This document shows positions 8,699-64,000 of a stretch of 64,000 nucleotides of DNA, in pieces. Source of the DNA: an uncultured Lachnospiraceae bacterium (GTDB taxonomy: Bacteria; Bacillota; Clostridia; Lachnospirales; Lachnospiraceae); the NCBI GenBank assembly GCA_947652735.1, contig CANTEG010000015.1, positions 2,165 to 66,164 on the forward strand, written 5' to 3'. The notes under the pieces are model-generated. The model searched no databases. It saw only the letters and a program-made list of their open reading frames with translations, and was not told where the DNA came from. The first letter of the stretch is position 1; every line of letters begins with the position of its first letter. The position numbers and the translations under genes are program-made.

Positions 8699-9144
8699 TT
8701 TAACCCCAACCTTTCTTTGAATGATTTTCGGAAGCTTCTGGAAATGTAATCCGTAATGCCATTTTTCATTACCAATTCCATTGTTCCATTAAAGCCAGCC
8801 TCAACATGGTGAATTTGCCTGATATTTATAATTGCAGATTTTGAAATCCGCACAAACTCTGTTCCGAGTATATGTTCCAGCTCATACAAAGGTCTGTTCA
8901 GGCTATATCTGTTTTTGCACTTATCATAACAGACGATTTCCCGTCCCTCCGTGCGGACTAATTCTATATTTTGCGGCTCAAGAAAATAGGTCTTTCGCTC
9001 TTTCACTGCAATGAGTGCCAATGAGCCGTTATCCTCCCGTTCCAGCATGGAAATAATTTCCGCAATGGGCTGTGTCATCTCCTTTATATGGATAACCGCA
9101 TATGGTTCTTTACAATCTACACTTATGTTACATTCCACTCTCAT
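8695..9144 (-). CDS. Stand-alone LytTR-family transcriptional regulator
   Basis: LYELEHILGTEFVRISKSAIINI...ISRSFRKSFKERL; no receiver domain. Confidence 0.88.
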   Translation of the reverse strand: MRVECNISVDCKEPYAVIHIKEMTQPIAEIISMLEREDNGSLALIAVKERKTYFLEPQNIELVRTEGREIVCYDKCKNRYSLNRPLYELEHILGTEFVRISKSAIINIRQIHHVEAGFNGTMELVMKNGITDYISRSFRKSFKERLGLK

Positions 9145-9429: not shown

Positions 9430-9870
9430 GTGAAGCTTTTGCATACCGCATTTGGACTTAAAATTAAACATCTTAATAATCTGATTACAAAAAAAGTTTA
9501 TGCATTATTTACGAATGATGAATACCCTTTTATCAGTCATTCCAGTTTTTTAGTAATTGATTATCTATATGAAAACAAAGATCATGAAGTTACACAAAAA
9601 GATATTGAAAAAGCTCTTGTAATCAATAGAGCCACTACTTCCAAAATGCTGCTTCTTTTGGAACAAAAAGGATTTATTTCGAGAATGAACAGTACAGAGG
9701 ACGCAAGGAAAAAAATTGTGGTCTTAACTGAACGGGGGCACGATTTCCGAACGCACAATCTCATGAAAGCAGAAGAATTAAACCATTTTTTTTCAGAAGT
9801 TTTATCAGAGGAAGATTTTATAGCCTTTAACCAGCTTTATGAGAAACTGCGTAATGCTTTAGAAGAATAA
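9430..9870 (+). CDS. MarR-family regulator
   Basis: TQKDIEKALVINRATTSKML...GFISR...DARKKIVVLT winged helix; GTG start. Confidence 0.9.
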   Translation: MKLLHTAFGLKIKHLNNLITKKVYALFTNDEYPFISHSSFLVIDYLYENKDHEVTQKDIEKALVINRATTSKMLLLLEQKGFISRMNSTEDARKKIVVLTERGHDFRTHNLMKAEELNHFFSEVLSEEDFIAFNQLYEKLRNALEE

Positions 9871-9910
9871 AGACGGAAACAATTTATGTTTCCTTTTTTA
9901 TCCCCTTATA

Positions 9911-11342: not shown

Positions 11343-11439
11343 AACATATATTTACCGATTTCTTTTATGGTTTGGTTATCATTTTTCAGACGATACAGCC
11401 ATAGGAACATTACAGTCAGGTGGTGGTAGCATGGAAAGC

Positions 11440-12519
11440 AATAGCTGTCATTCAAGCGTTTCAAGGCTCGCATTCGGATATTTTAACTCTGCATTCTTTG
11501 TAAGCCTTGCAATCAGGCGGTTCTGCCTTCCTGTAATAATCCGCACCCCATATAATGCCGCACCCCTGTTTTTCTGTATCCCCGGTCTTTGCTTTATTCC
11601 TCTTGCCTTTCGATATTTCTTTTATATAAGGAATCAGTGTATTGTATGTGACCGCATGAAAATCCTTTAAAGCCTTTCTGCAGGCTTCTTCCAGAAGTTC
11701 TTCTCCATATACTCCTGCTATATCAAGGACTGATCTGGCATCCATAAGAGCCTGTTCTTTTATTTTTGCATTCTCATAAATCCTGCATACCACGGTTTTG
11801 GTGTTTGCTCCTATTTCTTCCGCTTTTGCGGTAGTTGACTCTATGGTTTCCGGAATGTATCGAGGATAGGGAAGATGTGACAGCTTGGTCCTCTTACCAT
11901 TTTTTATACCGAATGGAAGACGTTGATGTTCTGCAATAAGTTTATGTGACGAACAAATATAAACCGCTCGGTTGTTATACCTTACATCAACATACCGGTC
12001 CAAATAATCACTGGGGACAGAATACTGCCCTTTATCAAACCATATGTGGGAATTGGGACCGACCAGTCTACTTCAAGTGCAACACCGGTTTTATGCTCCA
12101 CATGGCTGGTGTAATTCCTGCTGACGGTATATCTTTTGTATCCTCTCGCAAATGTAGGATAAGAACAGGCTTTTTCACCTTCCTTCTTACACTTTTCACA
12201 GCATTCCTCCCAGAGAAGCATCCCAGTGACTCCAACTTTACTGAGTCCCCTGTGGCAGTTGTCGGAAATCTGTCTGATCCTTGCGACAGAATTCCGGGAA
12301 ACATCAAGAACACCAGAAATCTCCCAGTCACTTAGTTTTTTTGAAGCAGTTCTATGATCTGCCTCACTCTTGTTTTCTTGAACATAAAGAAAACCTCCTT
12401 AAAGTGTATTTGAAAGACAGGATCTTTCATGAAAGACAGTTTAAAAGAGGATGGCATGCCATATCAATATACTATTGCCGCCACAATATATAGTGGTGGC
12501 TCTCAAGTGTGAGAATACA
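11440..12519 (-). mobile_element. Degenerate IS21-family element (istA/istB remnants)
   Basis: istA start at 12385 (MFKKTRVRQIIELLQK, frameshift, HTH ISGVLDVSRNSV), then VGVTGMLLWEE, HKTGVALEVDW joined directly to the C-terminal domain, then an istB-like fragment QNRLIARLTKNAELKYPNASLE. Probable left end TGTATT at 12519; right end not resolved. Confidence 0.75.
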
Positions 12520-42754: not shown

Positions 42755-43357
42755 CTAATTTGGATTAGTTAACCCTAAACTAGAAAAAATTTCCCTTCTT
42801 AGCTTCATGTACATGCCCGTTTCCTTTAAATCATCCGCAATGTCTACATTATATTTACTGTATCTTGCGGTTGTGAGCAGATATATCTTTTCATGCTGTC
42901 CGAAATTCACATCCTGAAGTTCCTTAAGAAACAAAATATATTCATTGTCCGCCCGCATCCAATAGTACCCCTCTGTAGACATAACATAATCCCCCTCTGG
43001 GAAATAATAAATTGGCTCAAATACTGATATCGTATCCGTTTCCACTTCTCCCTTATATACTTCCACAACATCAACTGTTGATACCGTATTTGAATCTACA
43101 CGCTTTCTTTCCGCATCCCTTTTTACTGATACCCTTACAATTACATCTGCCGTTTCTTCCAGATTTTTGGCATTAGATATTGTATAATCTATGTAAACGT
43201 CATTCAGTATGGGTGCAAGTACAATTTTGAGATTTTCATTATCAATATATTCCCACTGGGACATATCATCATAATATGAATTTTTTGTCACAAAGCCAAC
43301 TGCAACCGCTGCCAATATTACAAGTAATGATAAAATGATTATCAACTTATTTTTCAT
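42755..43357 (-). CDS. Membrane-anchored extracellular protein, last gene of the ABC cassette
   Basis: N-terminal TM; overlaps the ATPase stop. Confidence 0.7.
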   Translation of the reverse strand: MKNKLIIILSLLVILAAVAVGFVTKNSYYDDMSQWEYIDNENLKIVLAPILNDVYIDYTISNAKNLEETADVIVRVSVKRDAERKRVDSNTVSTVDVVEVYKGEVETDTISVFEPIYYFPEGDYVMSTEGYYWMRADNEYILFLKELQDVNFGQHEKIYLLTTARYSKYNVDIADDLKETGMYMKLRREIFSSLGLTNPN

Positions 43358-43991
43358 GCTCCACAACCTTTCCGTTTTCAATTTTTATTACTTCATCATA
43401 GTCCATTTCAAATTCACCATCATTGTGCAGTGCAATTACAACAACAGCCCCCCGCTCTCTCTCCTCAGTGATAACCTTTTGAAATAACCGTATTGTTTCA
43501 CTGTCCAACGCATTAAGCGGCTCATCAAGCAGCAAAATATCAGGCTTTTCCATGATTGCCTGAATAATACCAAGCTTTTGCTTCATTCCTAGGGAATATT
43601 TTCCTATTTTACGTTTATCATCCGGTGAGAGTCCCATTTTCTCCATGGAAGCCTTTATATCCTCATCTGTTATATTATTTTTTATGCTTGCCAAATATCT
43701 CAATACTTCAAGTCCCGTGTATTCCCGCCAAAAGGATGGATTTTCAATTAACACGCCTAAGCTTGCAGGATATGTACAGTTTTTCTTTATTTCCACATCA
43801 TTTACATAGATTGCCCCAGTAGTAGGGTAAATCAGCCCTGCTATTGCACGGAGCAGCATAGTCTTTCCACTTCCGTTTGTTCCTTTTAGCTTATATAGTT
43901 TCCCCGATTTCATTTCAAGGCTTATATCTTTTAAAATTTCTGTTTTTTTAAGAATTTTTGTATATTCTTCAAATCTGATTATTGTTTCCAC
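43347..43991 (-). CDS. ABC transporter ATP-binding protein
   Basis: GTNGSGKT, YSLGMKQKLGI, LLDEPLN. Confidence 0.92.
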   Translation of the reverse strand: METIIRFEEYTKILKKTEILKDISLEMKSGKLYKLKGTNGSGKTMLLRAIAGLIYPTTGAIYVNDVEIKKNCTYPASLGVLIENPSFWREYTGLEVLRYLASIKNNITDEDIKASMEKMGLSPDDKRKIGKYSLGMKQKLGIIQAIMEKPDILLLDEPLNALDSETIRLFQKVITEERERGAVVVIALHNDGEFEMDYDEVIKIENGKVVEHEK

Positions 43992-44692
43992 TATACCACT
44001 TCCCTCGTTTTCATAATTTTTATCCCTATCATATTTAGCAAAATAAATGCAACCACTATCGGTGCCAACGCATATGGCAGGTTGGAAGCCATGCCATTTT
44101 TTAAATATTGAAATACTCCAAAAAATTTGTCTCCCAAAGCAATGCCAATAAAATTATCAATGAATACTTCCACAGTTAACAATATGACTAAAAAAAGCTT
44201 TACATCTACCAGCATAGTCATAACATTAATCAATAATATATATGTAACCAGAAAAAGCATTGCATATAAAAAATACATCACATCAAATGTTTTCGTTTTA
44301 TTTTTGTAACACAAAACCATTGCGGAAGTTCCGTACAAAAGCACATAAAGAATACTTGTGTTTAATACAAGCTTAATTGTTCCTTTTTGAAACAAACCTT
44401 TTCTTTTTTTTGCCCGCGTAAACAACAGCTCCTGATTGCTCAAAATATCGTCTCTGTAAAAGCCTCCCAAAAAAACAATCAATATGCACTGATACAAAAA
44501 GAAATCCGTAACATGTATCAGATTGAAGCCCATATCCGCTATTCCTGTATATAAAAAACAAAGATAAATCAAATCCTTCATTTCATATACATTAAACTGC
44601 ATAAAATGAAGCCTTTTTGCAATAAACAGCACAATCAGAAAATATGCAGGTATAAGCTTCCTTGCTTCAATTAACCTCACTTTTTGCCTCAT
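43991..44692 (-). CDS. Putative ABC permease, membrane protein
   Basis: About 6 TM segments; coupled to the ATPase. Confidence 0.65.
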   Translation of the reverse strand: MRQKVRLIEARKLIPAYFLIVLFIAKRLHFMQFNVYEMKDLIYLCFLYTGIADMGFNLIHVTDFFLYQCILIVFLGGFYRDDILSNQELLFTRAKKRKGLFQKGTIKLVLNTSILYVLLYGTSAMVLCYKNKTKTFDVMYFLYAMLFLVTYILLINVMTMLVDVKLFLVILLTVEVFIDNFIGIALGDKFFGVFQYLKNGMASNLPYALAPIVVAFILLNMIGIKIMKTREVV

Positions 44693-45392
44693 CTCCCCAT
44701 ATAGGTTTTTTAAAATACAGCACACATGATAAAATAAATACCAATACCCCCTGTGCTATGCTTTTTAATATTTGGACAACAATTTGATATGGCTGTTTTT
44801 CATATATATCAATTACCATTTGATAATACAAATCAATAAACCACTCCTTAAACACAAATGTTGCAGAATGGGCAAATAGTATAAAGCCGATAATTAATAT
44901 TGTTATAATCATACTAAAAATTGTTTTGTCAGTAAGGTTTACAAAAAGAATGTAAATATTACCTATAAATATCCAGCCAAAGCACTGAGCCAGAATATTA
45001 CAACACAAAACATAAAATATATTAGCGGCGTCCAGCCCTCCCTCAAAGGTTGTTACTATAAATATTAATATCGTAGCATTTGTCACTAAAGCCATCTCAA
45101 TTGACTGAATTACCGTTTCATATATTTCTGCAATTAAAATATCCCGCTTCCTGTTATATCTTGAAATAACCGCTGTATGTAATAAAAATTTTATTCTGTT
45201 CATTAAGAAAAACAAAAATAATGGAACATAAATAAAAGCAATGTCAATATAACTCCAGCATACTTGATAAAACATATTTAAACCAAACAAATAGCTTTTC
45301 ATTTCATATATGTGAGTGTCCTTTATACTAATGAATGTAAATATACCTACAAACGTATATAAAAATATTTTTTTCCATATACCGTTTTTCAT
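44667..45392 (-). CDS. Putative ABC permease, membrane protein
   Basis: About 6 TM segments; operon context. Confidence 0.65.
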   Translation of the reverse strand: MKNGIWKKIFLYTFVGIFTFISIKDTHIYEMKSYLFGLNMFYQVCWSYIDIAFIYVPLFLFFLMNRIKFLLHTAVISRYNRKRDILIAEIYETVIQSIEMALVTNATILIFIVTTFEGGLDAANIFYVLCCNILAQCFGWIFIGNIYILFVNLTDKTIFSMIITILIIGFILFAHSATFVFKEWFIDLYYQMVIDIYEKQPYQIVVQILKSIAQGVLVFILSCVLYFKKPIWGDEAKSEVN

Positions 45393-46244
45393 TTATACCT
45401 CCTCTTTCTTTATTCCGACAGACACTGTTACAAAAATAATAAAACAATAAAATATAATATCCTTAAAATATGTGAGCAGATTGCCTGATGGGTTCACCTG
45501 AAGGAGCCCTGAGCACACAAGCTGCCCTAATGTTGTATTAGCTATACCAATATGCATAAAATACGAATCCATAATTGCTTCAATGAATTCTACAACATTG
45601 TAGATAAAAAATGCTGCCAAAAAAACCACATATTTATTTAACTTTCCTATAAATGATATTCCATATGAAAGAAGTGCAAACATTCCCGCTATCAGTGCCC
45701 GCATAATGGTAAAAAACATAATATTAATATATGGATGGCAAAAGCTTAATCTTTCGAGAACATTATACGGTTCATAACTGCTATCCTCCATCTGTATTAA
45801 CCTTTCTACTATTAATCCAAACGGGTTCAAGCCATTCAAAGGAAATGCAATAAGGCATAACAATAAACTTAAAAGCAGGGCTGCAAAAGCTGATACGCTT
45901 ACCACAAGAAAGATTGCCAATGCCTGTGTTTTTATATATGACCGCCTGTTTATTCTGGTAATGATATATGTATTAATCTGTTTCTTTTTATCTGTAAAAT
46001 ACATATCTGATGCAACAATACTTGCAACAATTGGTAGCGCAACCGTAAAAATAATTCTAATTGGTTGTCGGGAAATATTATTTAATATCATCATTTCATT
46101 GGCAGAGTAAACGGAAGATAGTTTGTTCCCATAAAAATTATAGCAATTTACCAAAAAATCAATTATTACAGCCGAAAACATCAATATCATTACATATAAA
46201 TATTCTTTTTTGTGTAATATTTTTTTTATTTCCAATTTTAACAT
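45393..46244 (-). CDS. Putative ABC permease, membrane protein
   Basis: About 6 TM segments; YIITRINRRSY motif of ABC-2-like permeases. Confidence 0.65.
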   Translation of the reverse strand: MLKLEIKKILHKKEYLYVMILMFSAVIIDFLVNCYNFYGNKLSSVYSANEMMILNNISRQPIRIIFTVALPIVASIVASDMYFTDKKKQINTYIITRINRRSYIKTQALAIFLVVSVSAFAALLLSLLLCLIAFPLNGLNPFGLIVERLIQMEDSSYEPYNVLERLSFCHPYINIMFFTIMRALIAGMFALLSYGISFIGKLNKYVVFLAAFFIYNVVEFIEAIMDSYFMHIGIANTTLGQLVCSGLLQVNPSGNLLTYFKDIIFYCFIIFVTVSVGIKKEEV

Positions 46245-46286
46245 GCTTAATTTCTTCCCCTAATTTATCTAGTTTAAATTTTGTCA

Positions 46287-46320
46287 GGTTGTCATTTGAA
46301 AATATTATCAAATGACAACC
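46287..46320. terminator. Stem-loop between the secreted-protein gene and the transporter genes
   Basis: GGTTGTCATTTGA-N8-TCAAATGACAACC. Confidence 0.65.
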
Positions 46321-46335
46321 CATGTAACTTAAAAC

Positions 46336-46758
46336 TTAATTATAATTCACATACCCCTCCACCTCATGGTGTAACAGTTGAGTATTCTCCAAATCTTCAA
46401 TACCTAATCGCACCGATGAGCCAGAAGCCATATTGCTTGTATATGTAACAACATACTTTTGATTTAATGCAGAACACGTTGTTATATGTGAGCATCGGTT
46501 TGTATTTGCATCACAAAACCATGCATTAATGCCTCCACACTTTTTAGCTTTAGCCACCAAATAAATATAGCCTTTTCCATAATTTGACTGCTTTGTTCTT
46601 GTTTGAAAATATGCATTTGCATACCCATACGGCAATTTACTTGAAAAATATCTCTCTGTTCCTGCACTTGGAATCGAAGCCGCCATAACAGGAATCCCCA
46701 CTGTCAACATCATTAATGCAGTAAGTATTACAATTAATTTCTTTGTCTTTTTTACCAT
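46336..46758 (-). CDS. Small Sec-secreted beta-rich protein with Cys residues (possible bacteriocin-like cargo)
   Basis: Signal peptide MVKKTKKLIVILTALMMLTVGIPVMAA; four Cys in the mature part; heads the ABC cassette. Confidence 0.75.
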   Translation of the reverse strand: MVKKTKKLIVILTALMMLTVGIPVMAASIPSAGTERYFSSKLPYGYANAYFQTRTKQSNYGKGYIYLVAKAKKCGGINAWFCDANTNRCSHITTCSALNQKYVVTYTSNMASGSSVRLGIEDLENTQLLHHEVEGYVNYN

Positions 46759-47055
46759 AGTTAACCTTCTTTCTTCATCAGTCCATTCCACATTTGCTTT
46801 TTGCAAATAAACAGACTACTCCCGTCAAATTTTCAGAATAAAAATTGACATACCCCTTGTTTTTATAATGTAATACACAATGGAAATTTAAATTTGAACA
46901 TACGAATTTTATAATTTCAGAATATACTTGTAGTGCAAAAAAACGGTTGTCCCTTAATATCCTCCCCTCTATATTAATTTCCCACCGTATAGCTACATTT
47001 TATTACTGTTTTTTTACATATATGGGTTGTATCCCTTTACCAAGATTATGAGTTT

Positions 47056-47084
47056 ATTTTAGATTACATGTCATATTTTGTCAA
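47056..47084 (-). promoter_or_regulatory. sigA promoter of the secreted-protein cassette
   Basis: TTGACA-N17-TAAAAT on the minus strand. Confidence 0.6.
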
Positions 47085-47090
47085 TATAAA

Positions 47091-47126
47091 AAATGGGGTT
47101 ACCACTACGCTTGTGGTAACCCCATT
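47091..47126 (-). terminator. Terminator after the LytTR response regulator
   Basis: AATGGGGTTACCAC...GTGGTAACCCCATT with a U-tract on the minus strand. Confidence 0.75.
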
Positions 47127-47853
47127 AATCATCAAAGAAATCTTCTCCCAAAATCAGCATACACTTTTTGCGAATTTTCTTTCGTCGTTCTTCACTGATT
47201 TGAAGCTCCGTGCCATCTAATAAAACAACCTTTGAGAAAGATATATTTTTAATATATCTATAGTTGACAAGATATGACTGGTGAATTCTTAAAAAATGAA
47301 TTTTTCCATCATCCAACTGTTTTTCTATGTTGTTTAGCTTTCCGTAAAATTTATCATTTCCTTCTTTCGAGTAAATGCTGATTACCCGCCTTGAGCTTTC
47401 AAAATACATAATATTTTTTGTTGAAATCTTCTTGGTTACCCTGTTGAAATTATACTCAAAAAATGCGTCGTCAGCTATTATTCTCTCATATGCCTTCTTG
47501 AAATAATCAAAGAATTTATTTTCCTCAACAGGTTTCTTAATAAATCTGAATGGCTCTACTTCAAACAATTCCATGCAATATTTCTCATGGTTTGAAATAT
47601 ATATTATAATTGTGTTTATATTGTTTTCCCTTATCTTTTTTGCAACTTCGATGCCATCTAACGAGTCCATTTCAATATCTAAATATAGTAAATCAAATTT
47701 CTTACCATTTAGTAAATCGTTCCAAAGCTCAACCCCATCCGAATATACTTCAATTGATACCTTAATAAATAATTTTTTTGATATTTCCAGTAATAATGAT
47801 TCTATTTGAGTAGCAAACATAATCTCATCGTCACATATTGCTATGTTTAACAA
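47125..47853 (-). CDS. LytR/AlgR-family response regulator (REC + LytTR), no adjacent kinase
   Basis: IAICDDE, LYLDIEM, FRFIKKP, FLRIHQSYLVN. Confidence 0.93.
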   Translation of the reverse strand: MLNIAICDDEIMFATQIESLLLEISKKLFIKVSIEVYSDGVELWNDLLNGKKFDLLYLDIEMDSLDGIEVAKKIRENNINTIIIYISNHEKYCMELFEVEPFRFIKKPVEENKFFDYFKKAYERIIADDAFFEYNFNRVTKKISTKNIMYFESSRRVISIYSKEGNDKFYGKLNNIEKQLDDGKIHFLRIHQSYLVNYRYIKNISFSKVVLLDGTELQISEERRKKIRKKCMLILGEDFFDD

Positions 47854-47854
47854 T

Positions 47855-48235
47855 TTAATTTTTCTCCTTTTGTACTTCCCAAAGTCTGTCCATCAAAATC
47901 ATCAAAGTTTTTCTGTTCTCATCATTGAGCTGTTTGTACATAGAAACTAATTCGTAAAATTCGTCTATTTCCTTATTAACCTGGAGCTGGACTTCAAGGT
48001 TTCTTTTTGTATCTGATAAACACAATAAATAATCCACTGTCACTTTAAAATGATTTGATATATTTACTATCAAATCTAATGGAGGTATACACTTTTCGTT
48101 TTCTACTCTACTAATTGTTTGTTGAGAGGACGCGACAAAATCAGCCAACACTGCCTGACCCATACCATGTTCTTCCCGTAATTCCCTTATTCGAGTCTTC
48201 AAACTATCACCCCACTCTTTTGTAATGATAGTCAT
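47855..48235 (-). CDS. XRE-family HTH regulator
   Basis: RIRELREEHGMGQAVLADFVASSQQTISRVE; true start possibly TTG at 48202. Confidence 0.88.
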   Translation of the reverse strand: MTIITKEWGDSLKTRIRELREEHGMGQAVLADFVASSQQTISRVENEKCIPPLDLIVNISNHFKVTVDYLLCLSDTKRNLEVQLQVNKEIDEFYELVSMYKQLNDENRKTLMILMDRLWEVQKEKN

Positions 48236-55189: not shown

Positions 55190-56851
55190 CTATAATTCCA
55201 TCATTCGTAAATGCGGATATCGTGCCACTCCTTGTTCTTTATTGTCTTCCCTGGATTTTTGGTAAATATCATTAAGCTCTGTATGTCCTTCATTCAGCTT
55301 TCGGTAAATATCGTCCAACTCCGTATCTTCATCACCGAGCCTCTGATAAATTCCGTCAAATGCTGTATCATCATCCAACCTTCGATAAATTCCATCAAAT
55401 TCCATGTCATCATCATCCAGTCGTTGATAAATTCCATCAAATTCCGAATCATTATAATCGGCCTTAAAATATCTTCTTTCGTTCCCTATATCATCATCCC
55501 GATAAGCACCATCCGTTCTTGTGCCATTCGCATTGGGATAAACTTTCTCGAACATTGTATTATCAAATCTTCGGTAATCCTTGTCAGATGTCATATCTTC
55601 CGTTGCTGCTTCTTCAGACTTTCCATAACCGTCCTTAAAATTATCTGACTGTTGGTAATTTTTTTCAAACCCTGCTTCTTCAAACTTCGGATACTCATCC
55701 TCAAACCATATATCGTCATCGTCCAGCTCACGATAACTTTCCTCAGAGCCCCGATAGCTGTCAAATCTTATATCATCATCGGCAATCTCACGATAATTTC
55801 CATCTGGTACGACTTCATCCGTCTCTTGATAACGTTCCTCAAAATTTGTGTTGTCATCCTCCCAAGTATCCACTTCAAAATCTATGTCCTCATCCGACAT
55901 TTGATTTTTCTCTTTAAAGTTCATGCTGTCGTCTGATTTTTTGTCAGCTTCATTGAAAGCCATCTCATTATTTGGCTTTCGATTATTCTCTTCGAAACCC
56001 ATTCCATTATCTATGTTTCGTGCTGTGTCCTCAAAATTCATTCCATCACTTAGCTCTTGGTTTACTTCCCCGAAACCCGTATTTTCATCTGTGCTTCGTG
56101 CAGCGTTCCCAAAATCCATATCGTCATCTGATTTGTTGTTAGCTTCTTCAAAACCCACCTTATTATCTATATTTCGGTCAGTTCCTTCGAAATCCGCTTC
56201 GTCATCTGACTTTGGGGTTGGATAACCACCCTCAAGCTTTCTATGGGATTTTATTGCATCCTCAAGCTTCTGATATTCATTCCTGAACTCTGCATATTCT
56301 GCATCAACATCTGCTTTGCTCTCCTCAAGCCGCTTCTGCATTTCATTTAATATCTCAATGGACTCATCCTGGGACTTTGCATTTGCTGCCGCCATCTGTG
56401 CAAGCAGAACTGCAATTCTCTCATTGCTGTTTACCATCTTAGTCGTATTGTCCATATCCTTTTTAATAAACAGCTTTGCCAACAGCTTATCCTGCTCCAT
56501 GAGTTGCTCTGTCATTCTTTCATTTTCGTCTTTCATATCAAGCACCACATCGATAATGGCTGACATACTCTGTCCTCTTGATATTTCCTCACGCTTTGCG
56601 ACTGAATAGATTCCCTTTTCCACCTTTGTAAGCTCATTTTGCTTGTCAATATTAATGGAAACAACCTCATCAACCTTTGCAAGAATTCCATCAACAAGAA
56701 AATAGGTGTCCACAATAACAATAAGTGAAACAGCTATAATAAGCTCTATGTTAGAAGCCGCTGCAAATATTAAATACATATCAACCAAAAAAGCAGCAAC
56801 AAATGCAACTGCACTAATTGTAAGTATTGATTGCGATCTTCCCGATTTCAT
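55190..56851 (-). CDS. Hypothetical protein: 2 TM, coiled coil, long acidic repeat tail
   Basis: Long ORF with a GGAGG-like RBS; D/E/F-rich repeats. Confidence 0.75.
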   Translation of the reverse strand: MKSGRSQSILTISAVAFVAAFLVDMYLIFAAASNIELIIAVSLIVIVDTYFLVDGILAKVDEVVSINIDKQNELTKVEKGIYSVAKREEISRGQSMSAIIDVVLDMKDENERMTEQLMEQDKLLAKLFIKKDMDNTTKMVNSNERIAVLLAQMAAANAKSQDESIEILNEMQKRLEESKADVDAEYAEFRNEYQKLEDAIKSHRKLEGGYPTPKSDDEADFEGTDRNIDNKVGFEEANNKSDDDMDFGNAARSTDENTGFGEVNQELSDGMNFEDTARNIDNGMGFEENNRKPNNEMAFNEADKKSDDSMNFKEKNQMSDEDIDFEVDTWEDDNTNFEERYQETDEVVPDGNYREIADDDIRFDSYRGSEESYRELDDDDIWFEDEYPKFEEAGFEKNYQQSDNFKDGYGKSEEAATEDMTSDKDYRRFDNTMFEKVYPNANGTRTDGAYRDDDIGNERRYFKADYNDSEFDGIYQRLDDDDMEFDGIYRRLDDDTAFDGIYQRLGDEDTELDDIYRKLNEGHTELNDIYQKSREDNKEQGVARYPHLRMMEL

Positions 56852-56958: not shown

Positions 56959-58308
56959 TTAGTGCGACAGCTTTTTCATCCTGCCACGCTTGTCATAACT
57001 TATCGTTATCTCGATTTTTTCAGGTATGGAGGATACAACCTCATAATTTTCACCTTTCACCACTCCATAAAGACCACCGTATTTTCCCTCCGTTATTGCC
57101 CTTACGTTTTCCAGACCATATCCATGGTATAGCTCCCAAAATTCATTTTTTTCAAGCTGTTTTTTAGGAACAATAGGGTTGATGGTATGTATGATTAGAT
57201 TTTTGTTGTGCATATAAATGCGTAATTTGACAAAACGCGTCCTGACAGACTGTATCTGCATACATGCTTTTATGCTGTTATTTAACATATTTCCAAGTAT
57301 AATACACAAGTCATAATCCTCAATGGGAAGTTTCATGTTTGATATGGAAATAGCGGTTTCCATTTGTATGTCCTCCTGTTCGGCAACTGAAACATAATGA
57401 CTTACAAGTGCATCAATGACAAGATTGCCTGTATTTATTTTTGTGTAACTGTTTTCCAGGTTATCGACAAGCTGCTTCATATAATCAGCGGCAGCCTGAT
57501 ACTGTTCTTTTTTAATACAGGCATCAATAAAAAAGTAATGCTCCTTTACATCGTGCACAATATGTCTGGTGTTCTTGTATGCACCGGAAAGCTGCTCGTA
57601 TCTTTCCTGCTGAAGAACGACGTTTGTCTGTTCCCTTGCATACTTTAGCTTTAAATCCGCAAGCTGGAGTACGTTGTCAAAAAGAACAAAATTAACAATA
57701 TTGATTACGATGATGCCAATAATCAGAAATAAAAAAAATGTTGTTGCACTTTCCAGAGTAAGAATTTCCAATGGAATAGACATCGGTATGGAAATCGTTA
57801 TAAAAGGTATGACAAATACGAGAAGCTTGTACTTTTTTGTGTATGATTTGGAATGTCTGTTCCAAAATATATTCGACGCATATGTAAATATAAGGACAAA
57901 TAGTTCCATGCCTGCCGTCACAAAATTATCAAGCATCAGAGGACTTATGTTAAATAGCTCCCTGTTGAATACGGATACTATAATCACAAACAAAATTTCT
58001 CCCATTACGGTAAATGCTACATAAATAATGGATGAAAATATATGCTGTAATAAGGACCCCTTATAAAGATTTGATAATACAAAGGCAGTTAAAAAACTGA
58101 TTCCTGTAGTTATTATCGTTTTGTAAAAACCAGTGTCCCCCGTAAAAGCCAATTTATTTGCATACAAAATAATCTGCACTAAGATATAAGAAACAGGTAC
58201 AAGAACATGAGGAATTTTCGAGTATTTATTTTTAAATACGGTTTTAAAGTAAATGTATTGCACAAATGCGTCAAATATGGCTGAAAGCACAGATAAAAAA
58301 ATTTCCAT
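56959..58308 (-). CDS. GHKL (AgrC/VirS-like) sensor histidine kinase
   Basis: Multi-TM N-terminus; HIVHDVKEH, NTGNLVIDA, LGNMLNNSIKA, HGYGLENV. Confidence 0.9.
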   Translation of the reverse strand: MEIFLSVLSAIFDAFVQYIYFKTVFKNKYSKIPHVLVPVSYILVQIILYANKLAFTGDTGFYKTIITTGISFLTAFVLSNLYKGSLLQHIFSSIIYVAFTVMGEILFVIIVSVFNRELFNISPLMLDNFVTAGMELFVLIFTYASNIFWNRHSKSYTKKYKLLVFVIPFITISIPMSIPLEILTLESATTFFLFLIIGIIVINIVNFVLFDNVLQLADLKLKYAREQTNVVLQQERYEQLSGAYKNTRHIVHDVKEHYFFIDACIKKEQYQAAADYMKQLVDNLENSYTKINTGNLVIDALVSHYVSVAEQEDIQMETAISISNMKLPIEDYDLCIILGNMLNNSIKACMQIQSVRTRFVKLRIYMHNKNLIIHTINPIVPKKQLEKNEFWELYHGYGLENVRAITEGKYGGLYGVVKGENYEVVSSIPEKIEITISYDKRGRMKKLSH

Positions 58309-58323
58309 TTTATAATCTCCGGT

Positions 58324-59058
58324 TTAGTTTATTTTTAGTTCAGTCACATTGTTTAACAGTCTTGCATAGATTGCGGATGCATATTTACGGCTTAATGGCA
58401 GGGATGTTCCATTGTTAAGCGTTATTTTATTGTTATTTACCTGATGTATGTGTCTGATGTTTACAAGTATACTGCGGAAACATTGCCAAAAACCATAAGG
58501 CTCAAGTTTCTTTATCCAATCGGTTAGTATACCTGATGTGACAATTATTTCTTTTAGCGTATGAAATATAAGCTCGTTTCTTTTGCCATATGAAATCTCA
58601 ATAAAAAGAATATCCGATACATGTATCAGCGCTTCTGATAAATCCGTTTTAATCAGAGTTACCATATTGGAGGTATCTGTAATTTCATCTAGCAGACTGT
58701 CAAGTATACGGCAAAAATCCTCATACGCTATGGGCTTGCACATATAGTAAAAGGGATGAACAAGAAAGCTGTCCTGCATATATTGCGGGTAGCTGCTTAT
58801 AAATATAATGTTTACGTGCTTGTCATATTGTTGTTTTAGTTTTTTTGCAGTATCAAGACCATTTATGCCCGGCAGCTCCACATCAAGAAGTACAAGCTCA
58901 AAGCCCTGAATATTTGGGGACGCCAGAAGAGAAACTCCATCGTCAAAACAGGTAATATTAAAATCAATATCTTTTTCAAATTGATATTCAAGGAGAAAAG
59001 CCTTTAATTTTTCCTGCATTTCCTTATTATCGTCACATATTGCAACATTTAGTAACAT
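58324..59058 (-). CDS. LytTR-family response regulator (AgrA/VirR-like)
   Basis: VAICDDN, LLDVELPG, CFRSILVN, LPLSRKY. Confidence 0.92.
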   Translation of the reverse strand: MLLNVAICDDNKEMQEKLKAFLLEYQFEKDIDFNITCFDDGVSLLASPNIQGFELVLLDVELPGINGLDTAKKLKQQYDKHVNIIFISSYPQYMQDSFLVHPFYYMCKPIAYEDFCRILDSLLDEITDTSNMVTLIKTDLSEALIHVSDILFIEISYGKRNELIFHTLKEIIVTSGILTDWIKKLEPYGFWQCFRSILVNIRHIHQVNNNKITLNNGTSLPLSRKYASAIYARLLNNVTELKIN

Positions 59059-59215
59059 GACTATTCCTTCCTTCCGTATATTCCGATTAATTAAAATACC
59101 TGTCGACTAGGAAACAGCTATTAAGGCAAGGCTTAAATGATTGTCCATACAGTACAGACCCTTGTTCTTATAGTAGCATAACACAAATAAAAGAGAAAGT
59201 GCTTTATCAGATTCC

Positions 59216-59358
59216 CTGCATTCGTTATTGGAAATATTGGGCATATATTCACACTGTTGTCCGCATTATGTATGAATTAAGCTCTAAAATGCATTTCATG
59301 TACGTTTTTTTACCTCTTATGCAAAAATCAGAATTTTTAAAATAAAAAAATGTATAAT
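59216..59358 (+). repeat. Duplicated promoter block, copy 1, with LytTR-type direct repeat
   Basis: Near-identical to 61693-61835; GCATTTCAT(59291)-N12-ACCTCTTAT-N32-TATAAT(59353); no -35 consensus. Confidence 0.85.
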
Positions 59359-59534
59359 TAGTGCACATCATATGATATGGCAACATAAGATTTTGAGACG
59401 GAATTAAGAGTGAGACCATTTAAAGGAGGGAGGCAGAAAAAAGATTAGAATTGAATTAGTAAATATGATTTGTCACTGTTGAAAAAAATGAAACAGCTTA
59501 CATGAAAGATGCATTTTGAAAGGGGATTAAAGCT

Positions 59535-60368
59535 ATGAATGTTAACAAAATGAAAAACAATATGTTTATTATTTTATTTGCAGTTGTCTTTTGCTTCATT
59601 TTTCCGTCAAATGTGCAGGCACAGGACAAGGACACGGAGGAGGAAATAAAGGAACAGATATTGAAGGAATTTGAAAATAACGGGGAATTTGCAAGGATGC
59701 AGGCTTACAGCAGTGAGATTGCAGACGCTTATATTGATGAATTGGTAAAAGACCGGATAAATCAGATGAATGAGGCATCACCACTGGCAACAGATACCTA
59801 TGGAAAAACCGCTTATTGCACTGTTCCTGTAAAAAAACAGACAACAACATCAAACTGTTCCGCTGCAACTTTATTACAGACAATGTATGGTCTGGGAAAA
59901 CAAAGCAGCATATCAGGAAGCACCGATGCACAAAAAATGGCAACCTTGTACAATCGGTACGATAACGCAAGTGCCCCGGGGGCAAGACATGAAAACAGCA
60001 CAGGTCCATTATATGTATACGAGATTGCATTATACTTAAATGGTTTTGTATCAAGCCACAAGTATACATATGTAGATGTGAGGGGGCAGGGGGTATCACA
60101 GCCCCAGTTTCAGAATAAAATATGGGACAGTCTTGTGCACGGCAGACCGATCCTTTTACATGCAATCACAAGCCCATTGTCATATTACAACGGAGCATAC
60201 TATGCACATTATTTGTCATTAGATTCCTATAACAGAGAAACAGGTACAGTTACAATTAAGGATTGTCATTATGATACAAGATATGGCGGTGCCCATCAGG
60301 TTTCTGTTAAGGATGCGTATAACTCTGTAACAATAGAAACTGGCAGGTATCTTATATATGGGCAGTAA
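59535..60368 (+). CDS. Secreted papain-fold cysteine peptidase (C39-like)
   Basis: Signal peptide ending VQA; KKQTTTSNCSAAT (Q...C), GRPILLH, AHYLSL (H), IKD (D). Confidence 0.75.
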   Translation: MNVNKMKNNMFIILFAVVFCFIFPSNVQAQDKDTEEEIKEQILKEFENNGEFARMQAYSSEIADAYIDELVKDRINQMNEASPLATDTYGKTAYCTVPVKKQTTTSNCSAATLLQTMYGLGKQSSISGSTDAQKMATLYNRYDNASAPGARHENSTGPLYVYEIALYLNGFVSSHKYTYVDVRGQGVSQPQFQNKIWDSLVHGRPILLHAITSPLSYYNGAYYAHYLSLDSYNRETGTVTIKDCHYDTRYGGAHQVSVKDAYNSVTIETGRYLIYGQ

Positions 60369-60379
60369 AGGAGTTGTTT

Positions 60380-61435
60380 ATGAAGAAAAAACTGAATTGT
60401 CTGATGCTGGCACTATTCATGATTGCCTGCTGCATGACTGGCTGTTCACCGAAGGATGCTTCCACTCATAAACAGGGCATAACCATGAAAACCCTGTCGG
60501 TACATGAACTTCCCTTTGTAGACAACGAATCCATAAAAAAAGGAAACAAAACGGGAGAAAAAATTGAGATAGATATGTCACAGGTTTTTCCTGATGAAGA
60601 TTACAGACCCGGTTATTCAAGGGGAATGGTATCAGACTATATTTTACATGACGGCTATATGTATTACCTCGTGTATTACCGGGCGGAGGAAGCAGCAGAA
60701 TTTGTATGGCCTAATCAGATGGTGGTTTTCAGACAGGATATTGAAAACGGAACAATGGAATATATGTTCCATCATATATATGACAGTTCTTTTATGACCT
60801 TAACAGGTATCCAATATAATGAAAATCTTGAATGGTTCAGGCAGGACAGCAGTGAAATTATATACCATGATACCTTAAAGGATGGTGAAATCATTACAAG
60901 GGTTCCAAGTATTGAGGAGGCATATTTTATAGATGAGAACCCTGATACCAGCTGGCAAAACGGTATAAAAGAAGAACTATTAACGGGAGATATTTACCTT
61001 ACGCTTGATTCAGATAAATATATTATATGGGACCAGTTTGAAAATCACGAAAATTATTATGAAAAATCTTACATAAACATATACAATAAGACAAGCGGGG
61101 AATATAACCAGATAGACAAAGAAGAGTATGGCGGTTATTTTCCACATGCACCAGTTGCATATGGAAATATCCTTGTATTTATTTGTGGTGATGATATTAA
61201 ATCTTATACAGATGAAAATGATTCTTTCGCCAGTGTATATTATGTTGAGCTTGATACAATGGAAAGCCGTTTATTGGTAAAGGGCAATGGGAATATGAAT
61301 AATATGGAAAGCACGTTCTTTGCGCCAATCAAACAAAATGATGGATATATATACTTTGAATCACTGGTAAATCCTTATGAAACCATTCCTCTTGGTGCCC
61401 AGCCATATGATACAATGTATATTATAAGTCAATAA
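60380..61435 (+). CDS. Hypothetical lipoprotein
   Basis: Lipobox MTGC; acidic and aromatic beta-rich body; coupled to the peptidase (AAGGAG RBS). Confidence 0.75.
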   Translation: MKKKLNCLMLALFMIACCMTGCSPKDASTHKQGITMKTLSVHELPFVDNESIKKGNKTGEKIEIDMSQVFPDEDYRPGYSRGMVSDYILHDGYMYYLVYYRAEEAAEFVWPNQMVVFRQDIENGTMEYMFHHIYDSSFMTLTGIQYNENLEWFRQDSSEIIYHDTLKDGEIITRVPSIEEAYFIDENPDTSWQNGIKEELLTGDIYLTLDSDKYIIWDQFENHENYYEKSYINIYNKTSGEYNQIDKEEYGGYFPHAPVAYGNILVFICGDDIKSYTDENDSFASVYYVELDTMESRLLVKGNGNMNNMESTFFAPIKQNDGYIYFESLVNPYETIPLGAQPYDTMYIISQ

Positions 61436-61516
61436 ACTACTGTAATAAATGCCTCGTTACAAAAAGCCAGATACGCAAAAAAATGCGTGGTTTTACAAAA
61501 AGGGTAAAAGAATGCA

Positions 61517-61561
61517 GGCTGTCACACATAGGCAGAAGCCTTACTGTGACAGCCATTTTTT
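61517..61561 (+). terminator. Terminator of the peptidase-lipoprotein operon
   Basis: GGCTGTCAC...GTGACAGCC followed by a T-tract. Confidence 0.7.
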
Positions 61562-61692
61562 CCTTGATTATTTCATTAGTAATATTTTAATAGTTTCTCT
61601 AATTTTTAATCATTCAAAATAGGCTTACCTCCAGCCTTACAGGATTGCAACAAAATAAGCTGCATACCCGATTAGCAGCAGTGCGCCATGTC

Positions 61693-61835
61693 CTGCATTC
61701 GTTATTGGAAATATTGGGCATATATTCACGCTGTTACCCGCATTATGTATAAATCAAACTCCAAAATGCATTTCATGTACGTTTTTTTACCTCTTATGCA
61801 CAAATTAAAAATTTGGAGATTAAAAAAAGTATAAT
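61693..61835 (+). repeat. Duplicated promoter block, copy 2, with LytTR-type direct repeat
   Basis: GCATTTCAT(61768)-N12-ACCTCTTAT-N32-TATAAT(61830). Confidence 0.85.
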
Positions 61836-62028
61836 TAATATATGGGATGTAATGCGGCAATATAAAAAATTGAGGAGGTAAAAATTTTTCATGTGTATTG
61901 TCCATTCAAGCCTTTTAAAATGAAAGGAGGCAGTTAAAATAAAGCGATAAAATTATACCCTTGTATAAATTTATCACTTTATTTGAAGCACGTTGAGATT
62001 AAAACAAAAATGTTAGGAGGAAAATACA

Positions 62029-62418
62029 ATGAAATATGGAAAATATGTTATGGCATTGACTTTTTTATGTGTTCTGTTTTTTTATTCATCGAAAAGTGCA
62101 TTGGCATCAGCAAGTAAACCCTATGGAAACTATAGTACAACTATTTCCGGTGGAATTGTGGCAACTTCGACTATAACAAAATGCAGTTGTAATCCAGTAA
62201 ATAATTATTTGATGGCATCTATACAGATTCAATATAAAGCAGGTGGAAATTATTATTGGTCGCCATCTTCGACAACATATAATTACAGCGATGGTTATAA
62301 CACGGAAAGCAAAACAAAAAGTATAACACATACCGGTATTACATATGCAAAAGGCTGGTTTAAAGCAAGATGTGGCTCGGGCAGTGTAAAAGAGTATTAT
62401 GACACGGCTACAAATTGA
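62029..62418 (+). CDS. Small Sec-secreted Cys-containing protein (lactococcin-972-like architecture)
   Basis: AGGAGG RBS; signal peptide ending ALA; about 100-aa S/T/Y/G-rich mature part; followed by a stem-loop and permeases. Confidence 0.7.
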   Translation: MKYGKYVMALTFLCVLFFYSSKSALASASKPYGNYSTTISGGIVATSTITKCSCNPVNNYLMASIQIQYKAGGNYYWSPSSTTYNYSDGYNTESKTKSITHTGITYAKGWFKARCGSGSVKEYYDTATN

Positions 62419-62490
62419 TGTTTTGTGAAAGAAAGGGTATTATAGATTAGGGTAGTCCCCTAGTTTATGATATTACTAGGGGGTAAACTT

Positions 62491-63606
62491 ATGATTGCAT
62501 TCCATTTATTAAAAAAACATATACAAATGCATAAATCAGTATCGGCATTGCTTTTTTGTGGTATTGTAGTATGCATATACTGCATAAGCGTAATGCTTGG
62601 GATTGCAGTTGGACAATATAATATGATTGCAAGTTCAAATGATTATGCTTCGATTACATTTGATATTGGTGAGGGTACTTCAAAAAAAATGGATGAAGTG
62701 TCAGAATATATTAATAATATTTCAAACAACGGTGTCATAAATGTTATTTATTTAAGCAGAATTTCGGACAATTTGATTGTTGCAGGGTGGGATGGAACAA
62801 AGGGGCAAAATTGGTTTCCCTTAACCACAGGCAGATTTTTCAATGAGGAGGAAATGTCCGACGGCAAAAAATCGGCATTTGTTTCAGACAATATTGGAAA
62901 TGAGATTTTGTCAAATAAAACTGTTGAAATTAGACAGACTTCTTATAATATTATTGGAAGTGCATGGATTGTTCCATGGAATTTTTTTACAGCTATGTCT
63001 TCAAATTCAATTGTTCATGTAATAAGGGAGGATGATACGGAATTTAATCTTTCCTTTATCATTATTCCATTTAAATGTTATAAAGAGGAATTTGTACCAC
63101 AGCAAATATTAATACAATTTAATTCTGCATCTTATACCGAATTAAAAAAATACGCAGATGAGATAGAAAGCAGATATGGGGATTCAAAAGCATATCCGCC
63201 TGATAAAAACTCTGATGGCATATTATATGAAAATAAAATAAGATATGGAAAAATGGCAGTGATTTTATGCTTTATCGCAGGATTGACGGTAATGAGGCTT
63301 ATGGCTGAATGGATAAGGCTTTATCAAAAGGAAATGTATGTGTTGAGACTTTGCGGTATGACAGGGCTGCGATGCACATCCATTATATATGGGCATTTAT
63401 TGTTGTATTTTATTTTAGGCGGTTGTATTGCGATATTTATACATTATCGTACATTTTTCCTGCTTAAACCAATCTATGGAAATTGCTTTCCTATAATGGA
63501 TGCATTAATAAAAATACTTACAATTATGTTTGTGCTGTCTGTTATTTGTACGGTTCCAGTGACAAGAAGGATAGTTGTTATGGGAAAAGAGGTGGCAGGT
63601 ACATGA
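62491..63606 (+). CDS. ABC transporter permease (FtsX/MacB-like)
   Basis: N-terminal TM, GRFFNEEE periplasmic-core motif, QKEMYVLRLCG, three C-terminal TMs. Confidence 0.8.
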   Translation: MIAFHLLKKHIQMHKSVSALLFCGIVVCIYCISVMLGIAVGQYNMIASSNDYASITFDIGEGTSKKMDEVSEYINNISNNGVINVIYLSRISDNLIVAGWDGTKGQNWFPLTTGRFFNEEEMSDGKKSAFVSDNIGNEILSNKTVEIRQTSYNIIGSAWIVPWNFFTAMSSNSIVHVIREDDTEFNLSFIIIPFKCYKEEFVPQQILIQFNSASYTELKKYADEIESRYGDSKAYPPDKNSDGILYENKIRYGKMAVILCFIAGLTVMRLMAEWIRLYQKEMYVLRLCGMTGLRCTSIIYGHLLLYFILGGCIAIFIHYRTFFLLKPIYGNCFPIMDALIKILTIMFVLSVICTVPVTRRIVVMGKEVAGT

Positions 63607-64000
63607 ATTTTTTAAGGATATGCAAAAATCTTTATTCAAAATATTTTCTTAGCGAAGTGATTTTGTTATTTCAGCTTGTATGTATGATAGGGTTTTCCTT
63701 TGCGGTACTAAATCCAATCGATGCATTTATACAGAAAAAAAATGCACTAAATCATGTGTATAAACTTGATATAGATGATGCCATTCATTTTAGTAAAAGC
63801 AATGCGGTTTATGAACAGGAAAAGCATGATGATTTTTCTTCATCTGATAAAATATACAACAAAATATGTGAAACGGAAGGGGTAGACAATGTACTTCGGT
63901 TTCGGCTTGCCAATGGTATATACGAAACCGAAACGATAGACCCCAATACAAATGAAGCAAAATTGGAAAGTGCAAATTTGTTTATATATTCAGAAGAAAC
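63603..64000 (+). CDS. Second ABC permease, truncated by the window end
   Basis: Not in the ORF track. ATGA overlap with the previous stop; MNFLRICKNLYSKYFLSEVILLFQLVCMIGFSFAVLNP... open to base 64000. Confidence 0.7.
   Translation, partial: MNFLRICKNLYSKYFLSEVILLFQLVCMIGFSFAVLNPIDAFIQKKNALNHVYKLDIDDAIHFSKSNAVYEQEKHDDFSSSDKIYNKICETEGVDNVLRFRLANGIYETETIDPNTNEAKLESANLFIYSEE

Follow-up and report, generated by a model that had tools for sequence, protein, structure and literature searches.

A LytTR two-component system, a duplicated operator-like promoter and two exported cargo modules in an uncultured Lachnospiraceae bacterium

The last part of a 64,000-nucleotide stretch of contig CANTEG010000015.1, from an uncultured Lachnospiraceae bacterium (the whole stretch is called the window below), holds a LytTR response regulator (RR) gene and a histidine kinase (HK) gene that are divergent from two operons, each headed by a copy of the same promoter-like block (positions 56959–64000; eight genes in three transcription units; Table 1). 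What does this two-component system control, and where does its signal come from? Circuits of the agr type are abundant in gut Clostridia, and their targets there are largely unknown. The explanation that best accounts for the whole locus, to which a probability of roughly 60% is assigned, is that it represents the sensor and output half of an agr-type circuit, whose regulator would act at twin promoters that each drive a cargo module composed of an effector and its self-protection. The gene assignments of an earlier first-pass annotation, which was made from the sequence alone, are all borne out by Pfam domains, signal peptides, a lipobox and a fold model.

Comparison loci and contigs from other genomes or samples are given here as L-numbers. 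L071, a 12-kb contig from another sample, carries the complete locus with its order unchanged, bordered by Na/Ca-exchanger and alanine racemase genes. Contig L001, which is identical to the window (100%) across a 1972-nt overlap, supplies what lies past the window end, namely the rest of the 411-aa second permease, a 224-aa ATP-binding cassette (ABC) ATPase of the MacB/LolD/FtsE type, a terminator and a convergent Na/Ca-exchanger gene.

The twin promoters and the circuit they suggest

The promoter block had been described as ~140 bp long and duplicated at 59216 and 61693; the two copies measure 183 nt, begin at 59215 and 61692, and are 83% identical across that length. Identity between them is 91% in the 76 nt upstream of the box, 100% in the 30-nt box itself (GCATTTCAT-N12-ACCTCTTAT), 72% in the 32-nt spacer, 100% in the TATAAT hexamer and 59% in the next 41 nt. 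Both copies thus have the features that had been read from them, an exact box, a spacer diverged in sequence and conserved in length, and a TATAAT without a -35 element. A promoter scan that demanded a -35 hexamer picked up neither P1 nor P2, which fits the absence of this element. The box occurs exactly twice in the 64-kb window, and no further box with three or fewer mismatches is present there (chance expectation 0.16). The two operons are parted by an intrinsic terminator (61517–61561), so copy 2 should be a promoter in its own right, and no alternative σ70-like promoter was found on the plus strand between 61561 and 62029.

Since both boxes lie inside one duplicated block, their mutual identity is no independent evidence of function, and because box identity alone proves little, evidence was sought in other genomes. 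In L065/L066, a Lachnospiraceae metagenome-assembled genome (MAG) whose orthologous kinase and regulator are 89 and 83% identical to those of the window, the promoter that precedes a lipoprotein gene and is divergent from the regulator gene reads GCATTTCAT-GTACGTTTTTTT-ACATTTTAA, followed by 32 nt and TATAAT. Compared with the window operator, the left repeat, spacer and 32-nt distance are unchanged here. In L033, agrB is preceded by GCATTTCAG-N12-GCGTTTCAG, 32 nt and TATAAT, and an HK-RR pair runs away from this promoter in the opposite direction. L052 has agrB behind the exact box, 32 nt and TATAAT, together with a divergent AgrD-like open reading frame (ORF), and in L018 an RR-HK pair is followed by the exact box, 32 nt, an extended -10 (TACTAT) and the gene for a secreted S8 protease (subtilase). 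In L016, two boxes in inverted orientation separate agrB from an operon with genes for an AgrD-like peptide, a 132-aa secreted protein, FtsX, FtsX and an ABC ATPase. Among 47 stretches that contain the exact box, a -10 at 32–33 nt together with adjoining agr or LytTR genes was found only in these agr/LytTR-linked loci; five others have a -10-like hexamer at 31–34 nt and no agr or LytTR gene by tblastn. The remaining exact matches in genome and metagenome collections are scattered over unrelated phyla in about the number expected by chance (~17 for 18 fixed bases, by a rough estimate of our own). Most exact matches were accordingly dismissed as chance, and only those in L016, L018 (with the same site in L046, L050 and L054) and L052 were taken as meaningful.

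The proposal that these are twin promoters with the architecture of a LytTR operator is thus strengthened by a 9-12-9-32-(-10) geometry that recurs in L065, L033, L018, L052 and L016. The ComE site is likewise built of 9-bp repeats with a 12-mer between them (PMC4005675). From this conserved geometry we infer that the regulator binds the boxes and, very probably, activates both promoters. An extracellular signal would activate the polytopic kinase, which would phosphorylate the LytTR regulator; a regulator dimer would bind the two 9-bp repeats 12 bp apart and recruit RNA polymerase to a promoter that has no -35 and whose -10 lies 32 nt downstream. The two promoter copies would in this way drive two terminator-separated operons, one for a secreted papain-fold pro-peptidase and its lipoprotein partner, the other for a small secreted beta-sandwich protein and a heteromeric MacB/FtsX-type ABC transporter (two permeases and an ATPase). 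As a whole this regulatory model seems quite likely to be correct, and its logic is of an already known kind, that of agr, VirSR and ComE-Blp. The locus had been called a possible undescribed antagonism or quorum module; this is still fair for the cargo, whose families are without annotation. As far as could be found, the new elements are an orphan AgrCA-like pair, a promoter duplication that rewires a cassette otherwise riding with agrBD, and two unannotated cargo families that in Lachnospiraceae turn up repeatedly with LytTR systems. The locus and its relatives also offer an operator that can be tested (9-12-9, with the -10 at a distance of 32 nt).

The kinase has a PF14501 HATPase_c_5 domain (E 1.8e-12; 47.5 bits, cut-off 22) and a polytopic N-terminus with at least five hydrophobic segments in residues 1–210, and the regulator has PF00072 Response_reg and PF04397 LytTR domains that both exceed the Pfam cut-offs; domains and positions agree with the original description of a LytTR regulator and a GHKL kinase transcribed divergently beside copy 1. 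Neither agrB/agrD nor a double-glycine pheromone gene had been visible in the sequence, and directed searches are in accord with this. Three AgrB proteins from related loci, searched against the window by tblastn, had no match with E below 0.3, and a motif scan of all small ORFs for AgrD (a Cys or Ser ring, then an acidic/Pro motif) gave no candidate near the locus; clear AgrD-like ORFs are present in L007, L016 and L052 for comparison. The orthologous L065 locus also has no agrB or agrD, and no double-glycine peptide gene or peptidase-containing ABC transporter (PCAT) was found near the locus of the window. To call the locus self-contained, as had been done, is then too much, as the sensor and outputs are present and the signal synthase is not, and homologous cassettes in other genomes are usually co-transcribed with agrB and/or agrD (as in L007, L033 and L016). 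From its gene content the locus appears to be the sensor and output half of an agr-type circuit, with a signal source that lies elsewhere or is foreign; the signal would most likely be a cyclic autoinducing peptide, whether neighboring bacteria produce it or an agrBD at another place in the genome does.

Clostridium perfringens VirS/VirR, in which agrBD is distant from the two-component system and the outputs include the cysteine protease ccp (PMC4963840), is similar in having a LytTR regulator and a membrane kinase without adjoining agrBD, few promoters with paired direct-repeat boxes, and secreted outputs. On the other hand, the box GCATTTCAT/ACCTCTTAT is not a VirR box, the regulator is no close VirR relative, the cargo families are unrelated, and no regulatory RNA output is seen here (an Rfam search of 58900–62200 gave no matches). 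With Staphylococcus aureus agrBDCA and clostridial agr the locus shares an HPK10-type HATPase_c_5 kinase, a LytTR regulator and a direct-repeat operator, the activator site being two direct repeats ~21 bp apart with a geometry that matches the sites before agrB in L033 and L052, as well as a cassette whose homologues are transcribed with agrB/agrD. It differs from agr in its lack of these two genes, in its gene order (RR-HK rather than agrC-agrA), in having no recognizable box before the two-component operon, and in an output of protein cargo rather than RNAIII. In Streptococcus pneumoniae ComDE/BlpRH, two imperfect 9-bp repeats 12 bp apart are also the activator site (PMC4005675), several operons are under one box, and the cargo consists of secreted antagonistic factors with immunity and ABC genes; in contrast, the present locus has no double-glycine pheromone and no peptidase-containing ABC exporter, and its cargo is Sec-dependent and far larger than class II peptides.

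The second promoter copy abuts a remnant of a Na/Ca-exchanger gene (94% identical over 17 aa to the intact L001 gene by tblastn, in agreement with a DNA alignment), from which it appears that a rearrangement gave rise to copy 2. Behind the lipoprotein gene lies a terminator nearly identical to the one that follows the ABC ATPase gene in L001 (L001 3815–3935); a unit of terminator and exchanger 3′-end consequently flanks P2 and the cassette, and the promoter block flanks the peptidase operon. These junctions are most simply read as the result of an unequal, illegitimate join of two locus versions, or else of a tandem duplication followed by cargo replacement, and a second cargo module would thereby have been placed under the same operator. 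Independent, portable cargo modules would have been joined under one regulator by this promoter-duplicating event, and a cassette that in other genomes comes with an agrBD of its own would have been rewired to a different LytTR system by duplication of a promoter of ~110–180 nt.

Several smaller elements of the block and its surroundings deserve mention. A 48-aa ORF is open in both copies (59199–59345 and 61688–61834) and was rejected as a gene; five of its six differing codons are non-synonymous and it has no ribosome-binding site. Three 9-mers that begin with GCAT (GCATTCGTT, GCATATATT and GCATTATGT at 59218, 59241 and 59263, spaced 22–23 nt) lie upstream of the box in a region (59218–59271; 61695–61748 in copy 2) that is 91% conserved between copies. 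They could be extra binding sites or just recently duplicated sequence, and as the orthologous L065 promoter does not have them, they are not claimed as operator sites. A strong Shine-Dalgarno-like GAAAGGAGG is present in each of the 5′ leaders (59422–59436 and 61922–61933) ~100 nt before the start codon of the first gene, with no start codon of its own behind it; the L033 leader has this element as well. It resembles the STAB-SD mRNA stabilizer of Bacillus cry genes.

The cargo modules

The first operon encodes a peptidase in which Q102, C108, H225 and D243 are invariant among 22–23 homologues. Its match to PF13529 Peptidase_C39_2 (17.2 bits) is below the Pfam cut-off of 24, and several of its homologues carry a precomputed match to this family. 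The AlphaFold2 model (predicted local distance difference test, pLDDT, 88.5) has a papain fold with a helical, pro-region-like segment in front of it, and its best structure matches in the Protein Data Bank (PDB) are NsPCS (cyanobacterial, phytochelatin-synthase-like), the C39 leader peptidase LahT150 and prointerpain, all with modest TM-scores. The C39 peptidases that process bacteriocins are cytoplasmic domains, either part of an ABC exporter or acting together with one, and cleave double-glycine leaders, whereas this enzyme has its own Sec signal peptide, stands alone and has a lipoprotein partner. The partner has no Pfam match and no PDB sequence match. A homologous lipoprotein gene lies directly downstream of the peptidase gene in every neighborhood examined (these and all co-occurrence comparisons below cover 8–10 kb each), and the lipoprotein diverges faster than the enzyme (27–31% against 47–55% identity). 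The pair is present without the cassette and without the regulator in L010, L012, L031 and L067, and in L010 its surroundings are toxin/immunity-like. A remnant of ~45 nt of a kinase 3′-end in L031 (9520–9560) indicates that the two-component system was lost there.

The L065 locus is instructive in this regard. Its peptidase gene is internally deleted to an 81-aa remnant, the orthologous two-component system and box persist, and two lipoprotein genes (94% identical) are retained, one of them directly behind the box promoter. Orphan immunity genes are commonly kept in this way. The obligatory and faster-evolving lipoprotein, its retention and duplication after loss of the peptidase, and the L010 surroundings all fit an effector-immunity or protease-inhibitor pair. 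No description of the peptidase-lipoprotein pair was found in the literature. Between the two intact L065 lipoprotein genes (11190–11880) lie a remnant of the kinase 3′-end and the deleted peptidase gene. In a Eubacterium MAG (L013, 4630–9882), two divergent peptidase-lipoprotein pairs flank a truncated LytTR regulator gene; a full HK-RR pair, an XRE regulator, a 53-aa AgrD-like ORF and agrB adjoin them.

The second operon begins with the gene for a 129-aa protein whose signal peptide, as read from the sequence, ends in ALASA just before SKPYG. It has three conserved cysteines and the motifs K-C-x-C-x-P-V-N-N-Y-L and Y-A-K-G-W-F-x-A-x-C-G. Its small family (nine close homologues; ~70 clusters at 50% identity) is one compact domain with no pro-region; the mature N-terminus is conserved right after the signal peptide, and the GG of the window protein is not conserved. 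The protein gave no Pfam/NCBIfam match at E up to 10 or 0.1, ten distant members of the family gave no match to Lactococcin_972 or any other Pfam/NCBIfam family, and PDB sequence searches with profiles of this family, the peptidase and the lipoprotein gave nothing significant. Homology with the 132-aa protein of L016 was rejected (hhalign probability 0.7%), and P0078, a 693-aa translation with eight apparent "repeats" of the domain, is a low-complexity artefact.

This gene is followed by genes for FtsX, FtsX and an ABC ATPase in every neighborhood examined. The cassette adjoins a LytTR two-component system in L007, L032, L033 and the window. In L007 an AgrD-like ORF lies directly before the 127-aa gene and the cassette is divergent from agrC-agrA-agrB; in L033 the cassette follows agrB and an AgrD-like reading frame, and in L032 it follows an RR-HK pair. 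A Clostridium sp. MAG (L005) has the cassette alone between rpoC and rpsL, with no agrB or two-component system within 10 kb; upstream of it (9700–9880) is a seemingly degenerate agrD-like frame (..VYEPKIPQALKK..). The analogous cassette of L016, with its non-homologous secreted protein, is headed by an agrD-like gene. L005, L007, L032 and L033 all have the cassette without the peptidase, and outside the species of the window the peptidase was never found near it. Thus the peptidase-lipoprotein pair and the cassette appear to be independent units. Permease 1 matches MacB_PCD (33.9 bits, cut-off 27) and has a length of 371 aa in the gene calls of L071 and L005, and permease 2 matches FtsX (26.0 bits, cut-off 25.5). 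Features of a MacB/FtsX (type VII) transporter are present in the form of a MacB_PCD permease, a C-terminal FtsX module and a MacB/LolD/FtsE-type ATPase. No description of the cassette was found in the literature.

Lactococcin 972 is a Sec-dependent beta-sandwich bacteriocin whose gene is followed by membrane protein and ABC ATPase genes thought to serve export or immunity; its family is PF09683/TIGR01653 (Lactococcin_972). The cassette is similar in pairing a small Sec-exported beta-sandwich protein, a feature that is not family-specific, with ABC genes. It is different in having two FtsX permeases, each with four transmembrane segments, rather than one large membrane protein, and a mature protein of ~100 aa with conserved cysteines. 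The cassette ATPase scores 195.8 bits against TIGR03608 (L_ocin_972_ABC; cut-off 254.85), rank 4 after LolD and FtsE models, and TIGR03608 is the best match of the L016 ATPase (233 bits, also below the cut-off). Homology of the 129-aa protein with lactococcin 972 was rejected, there being no Pfam/NCBIfam match and only a generic fold match to immunoglobulin/fibronectin type III (Ig/FnIII) domains; 2LGN is not among the top 50 Foldseek matches listed for the model.

The peptidase may be paired with the lipoprotein as an inhibitor or immunity protein in density-dependent competition, and, in parallel with such bacteriocin clusters, a Sec-dependent, bacteriocin-like 129-aa protein may be paired with an immunity ABC transporter. 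Density-controlled antagonism is the likeliest cargo function; for both modules this reading is tentative and is given somewhat less than even odds. If it is correct, two recurrent unannotated modules would be candidate density-dependent competition factors in the gut community. A still wider view, in which Sec-dependent protein bacteriocins with MacB-type immunity pumps form a widespread, hitherto undescribed output class of agr in gut Lachnospiraceae, the peptidase is a new secreted cysteine-protease effector with lipoprotein immunity, and strains shuffle such modules between LytTR circuits by promoter duplication, is speculative and on present evidence doubtful.

Alternative readings

A number of observations weigh against the circuit and the cargo roles proposed above. 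The right repeat ACCTCTTAT agrees with the left at only five of nine positions, and the right repeat of L065 differs from that of the window at three. It was the search for the exact box that led to the sites in L018 and L052 and to one of those in L016, and what counts as evidence there is limited to flanks and spacing. The regulators beside identical boxes in L018 and the window are only 25% identical. Ahead of the RR-HK operon the window scan, which allowed up to three mismatches, found no LytTR box on the minus strand; a weak match to the ATTTC core at 59229–59237 on that strand is not conserved in L065. Positive autoregulation is typical of agr, and with no box in this position it is not evident here. 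Neither the window nor the complete locus L071 yielded an agrB or agrD gene, and the link between regulator and box is drawn from sequence. As for the cargo, the all-beta model of the 129-aa protein (pLDDT 68.7) is a generic Ig/FnIII-like sandwich, no bacteriocin family matched the protein, and the structure matches of the peptidase model support a papain fold without singling out a substrate.

The most serious rival concerns the cassette, which, instead of a bacteriocin-immunity unit, could be an envelope machine of the mechanotransducing MacB/FtsEX/LolCDE/BceAB kind with the 129-aa protein as its extracellular partner or substrate, and might act in surface remodeling, peptide resistance or autoinducer export. 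The MacB_PCD match of permease 1, the presence of two different FtsX-type permeases with four transmembrane segments each (topology 1+3), as in LolCE, and an ATPase whose top matches are LolD, FtsE and MacB models all point in this direction, and co-transcription with agrD or agrBD in L007, L016 and L033 would suit peptide export too. However, the L005 cassette lies between rpoC and rpsL with no agr system nearby, no hydrolase or adaptor domain was found in the 129-aa protein, and a housekeeping envelope role would be unusual for a cassette that is mobile and varies between strains. Such a role is rather unlikely, though it has to be taken seriously.

A second possibility is that the kinase senses no AgrD-type thiolactone at all, and responds instead to a product of its own regulon, as in nisin and three-component bacteriocin loci, or to a foreign peptide on which it eavesdrops. 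It would explain why agrB and agrD were not found in the window, L065 or L071, and the two-component system, which has the order RR-HK and is ~25% identical to the agrBD-linked pairs in L007 and L033, does belong to a lineage distinct from those that carry agrBD. It is nevertheless improbable, as L016, L033 and L052 have agrB linked to HATPase_c_5/LytTR pairs with an operator of this type, neither a double-glycine peptide gene nor a PCAT exporter was found, and C. perfringens is an example of an agrBD situated far from its two-component system (PMC4963840).

The first-pass annotation had joined the two operons into one coupled module, in which the peptidase matures the 129-aa protein or generates the peptide that the kinase senses, much as in the Enterococcus faecalis Fsr quorum system, which induces GelE, the protease that processes the co-regulated pro-bacteriocin EntV/enterocin O16 (PMC5454873). 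Both loci have a LytTR system that co-induces a secreted protease operon and a secreted protein (a prediction in the present case); Fsr differs in having fsrB/fsrD and a metalloprotease, and it has no lipoprotein partner or MacB-type ABC transporter. The operator common to both operons, the resemblance of the peptidase to C39 leader peptidases (Foldseek TM-scores of 0.36–0.39 with LahT150 and the ComA peptidase domain) and the lack of another local signal gene speak for such coupling, and on the precedent of Fsr-GelE-EntV (PMC5454873) the idea retains a low probability. The co-occurrence check that had been suggested with it came out negative, since the peptidase pair and the cassette are apart in every other 8–10-kb neighborhood examined, each present without the other. 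In addition, L065 keeps the orthologous two-component system and box in spite of its deleted peptidase, and the 129-aa family has a conserved mature N-terminus, no pro-region and no conserved GG. Maturation of the 129-aa protein or signal production by the peptidase is thus unsupported, and the coupled module is quite improbable.

Finally, it is very improbable that the duplicated block is a mere scar of segmental duplication in which one copy or neither depends on the regulator, because although copy 2 begins exactly at the rearrangement junction and L065 does not share the 76 nt before the box, so that recent shared ancestry or gene conversion, and not function, accounts for part of the identity between copies, the box and -10 remained 100% identical while the spacer and leader diverged at constant length, and the cassette, cut off by a strong terminator and with no other σ70-like promoter found before it, needs a promoter of its own.

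Coordinates and neighboring modules

Table 1. Positions of the features discussed, in window coordinates
Feature	Position	Strand	Remarks
AgrC-type (HPK10-like) sensor histidine kinase	56959–58308	-	449 aa; HATPase_c_5 GHKL domain
LytTR response regulator	58324–59058	-	244 aa; first gene of RR-HK operon
Candidate extended -10 of RR-HK promoter	59170–59178	-	TGcTACTAT; putative, read from sequence; surroundings conserved in L065
Promoter block, copy 1 (P1)	59215–59397	+	Direct repeat, 183 nt
Putative LytTR operator 1	59291–59320	+	GCATTTCAT-N12-ACCTCTTAT
-10 hexamer of P1	59353–59358	+	TATAAT; 32 nt past operator 1; no -35
Secreted papain-fold cysteine peptidase	59535–60368	+	277 aa; signal peptide, helical pro-region-like segment (residues 35–77), catalytic domain
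Partner lipoprotein	60380–61435	+	351 aa; lipobox MTG followed by C
Intrinsic terminator of peptidase-lipoprotein operon	61517–61561	+	Hairpin -29.1 kcal/mol, z -5.4, then U-run
Na/Ca-exchanger remnant	61640–61690	-	Last 17 codons (51 nt); ends one base before block copy 2
Promoter block, copy 2 (P2)	61692–61874	+	Direct repeat, 183 nt
Putative LytTR operator 2	61768–61797	+	Identical to operator 1, N12 included
-10 hexamer of P2	61830–61835	+	TATAAT; 32 nt past operator 2; no -35
Sec-exported protein	62029–62418	+	129 aa; mature ~100 aa, beta-sandwich (model)
MacB/FtsX-type permease 1	62491–63606	+	371 aa; likely start 62491, ORF opens 62467
FtsX-type permease 2	63603–64000	+	Cut by window end; 411 aa in L001
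XRE regulator	47855–48235	-	Second LytTR-linked module
Orphan LytTR response regulator	47125–47853	-	Second LytTR-linked module
Sec-signal, Cys-containing protein	46336–46806	-	156 aa; no Pfam match; second LytTR-linked module
ABC ATPase	43347–43991	-	Second LytTR-linked module

Directly downstream of the kinase gene, on the same strand (55190–56851, minus), lies a gene for a 553-aa protein with N-terminal transmembrane segments and an extended region of acidic repeats (DD-x-EFDGIYxxL units). It belongs to no Pfam family, and the synteny is kept in L070 and L072. The second LytTR-linked module of the window (42755–48235, minus strand) has a theme like that of the main locus; in addition to the genes listed in Table 1 it holds three polytopic membrane proteins and a 208-aa protein. 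At 8234–9144 on the minus strand, a gene for a stand-alone LytTR protein (149 aa) is followed by one for a DUF3021 membrane protein, a layout like that of LytTR regulatory systems of the HdrRM/BrsRM kind.

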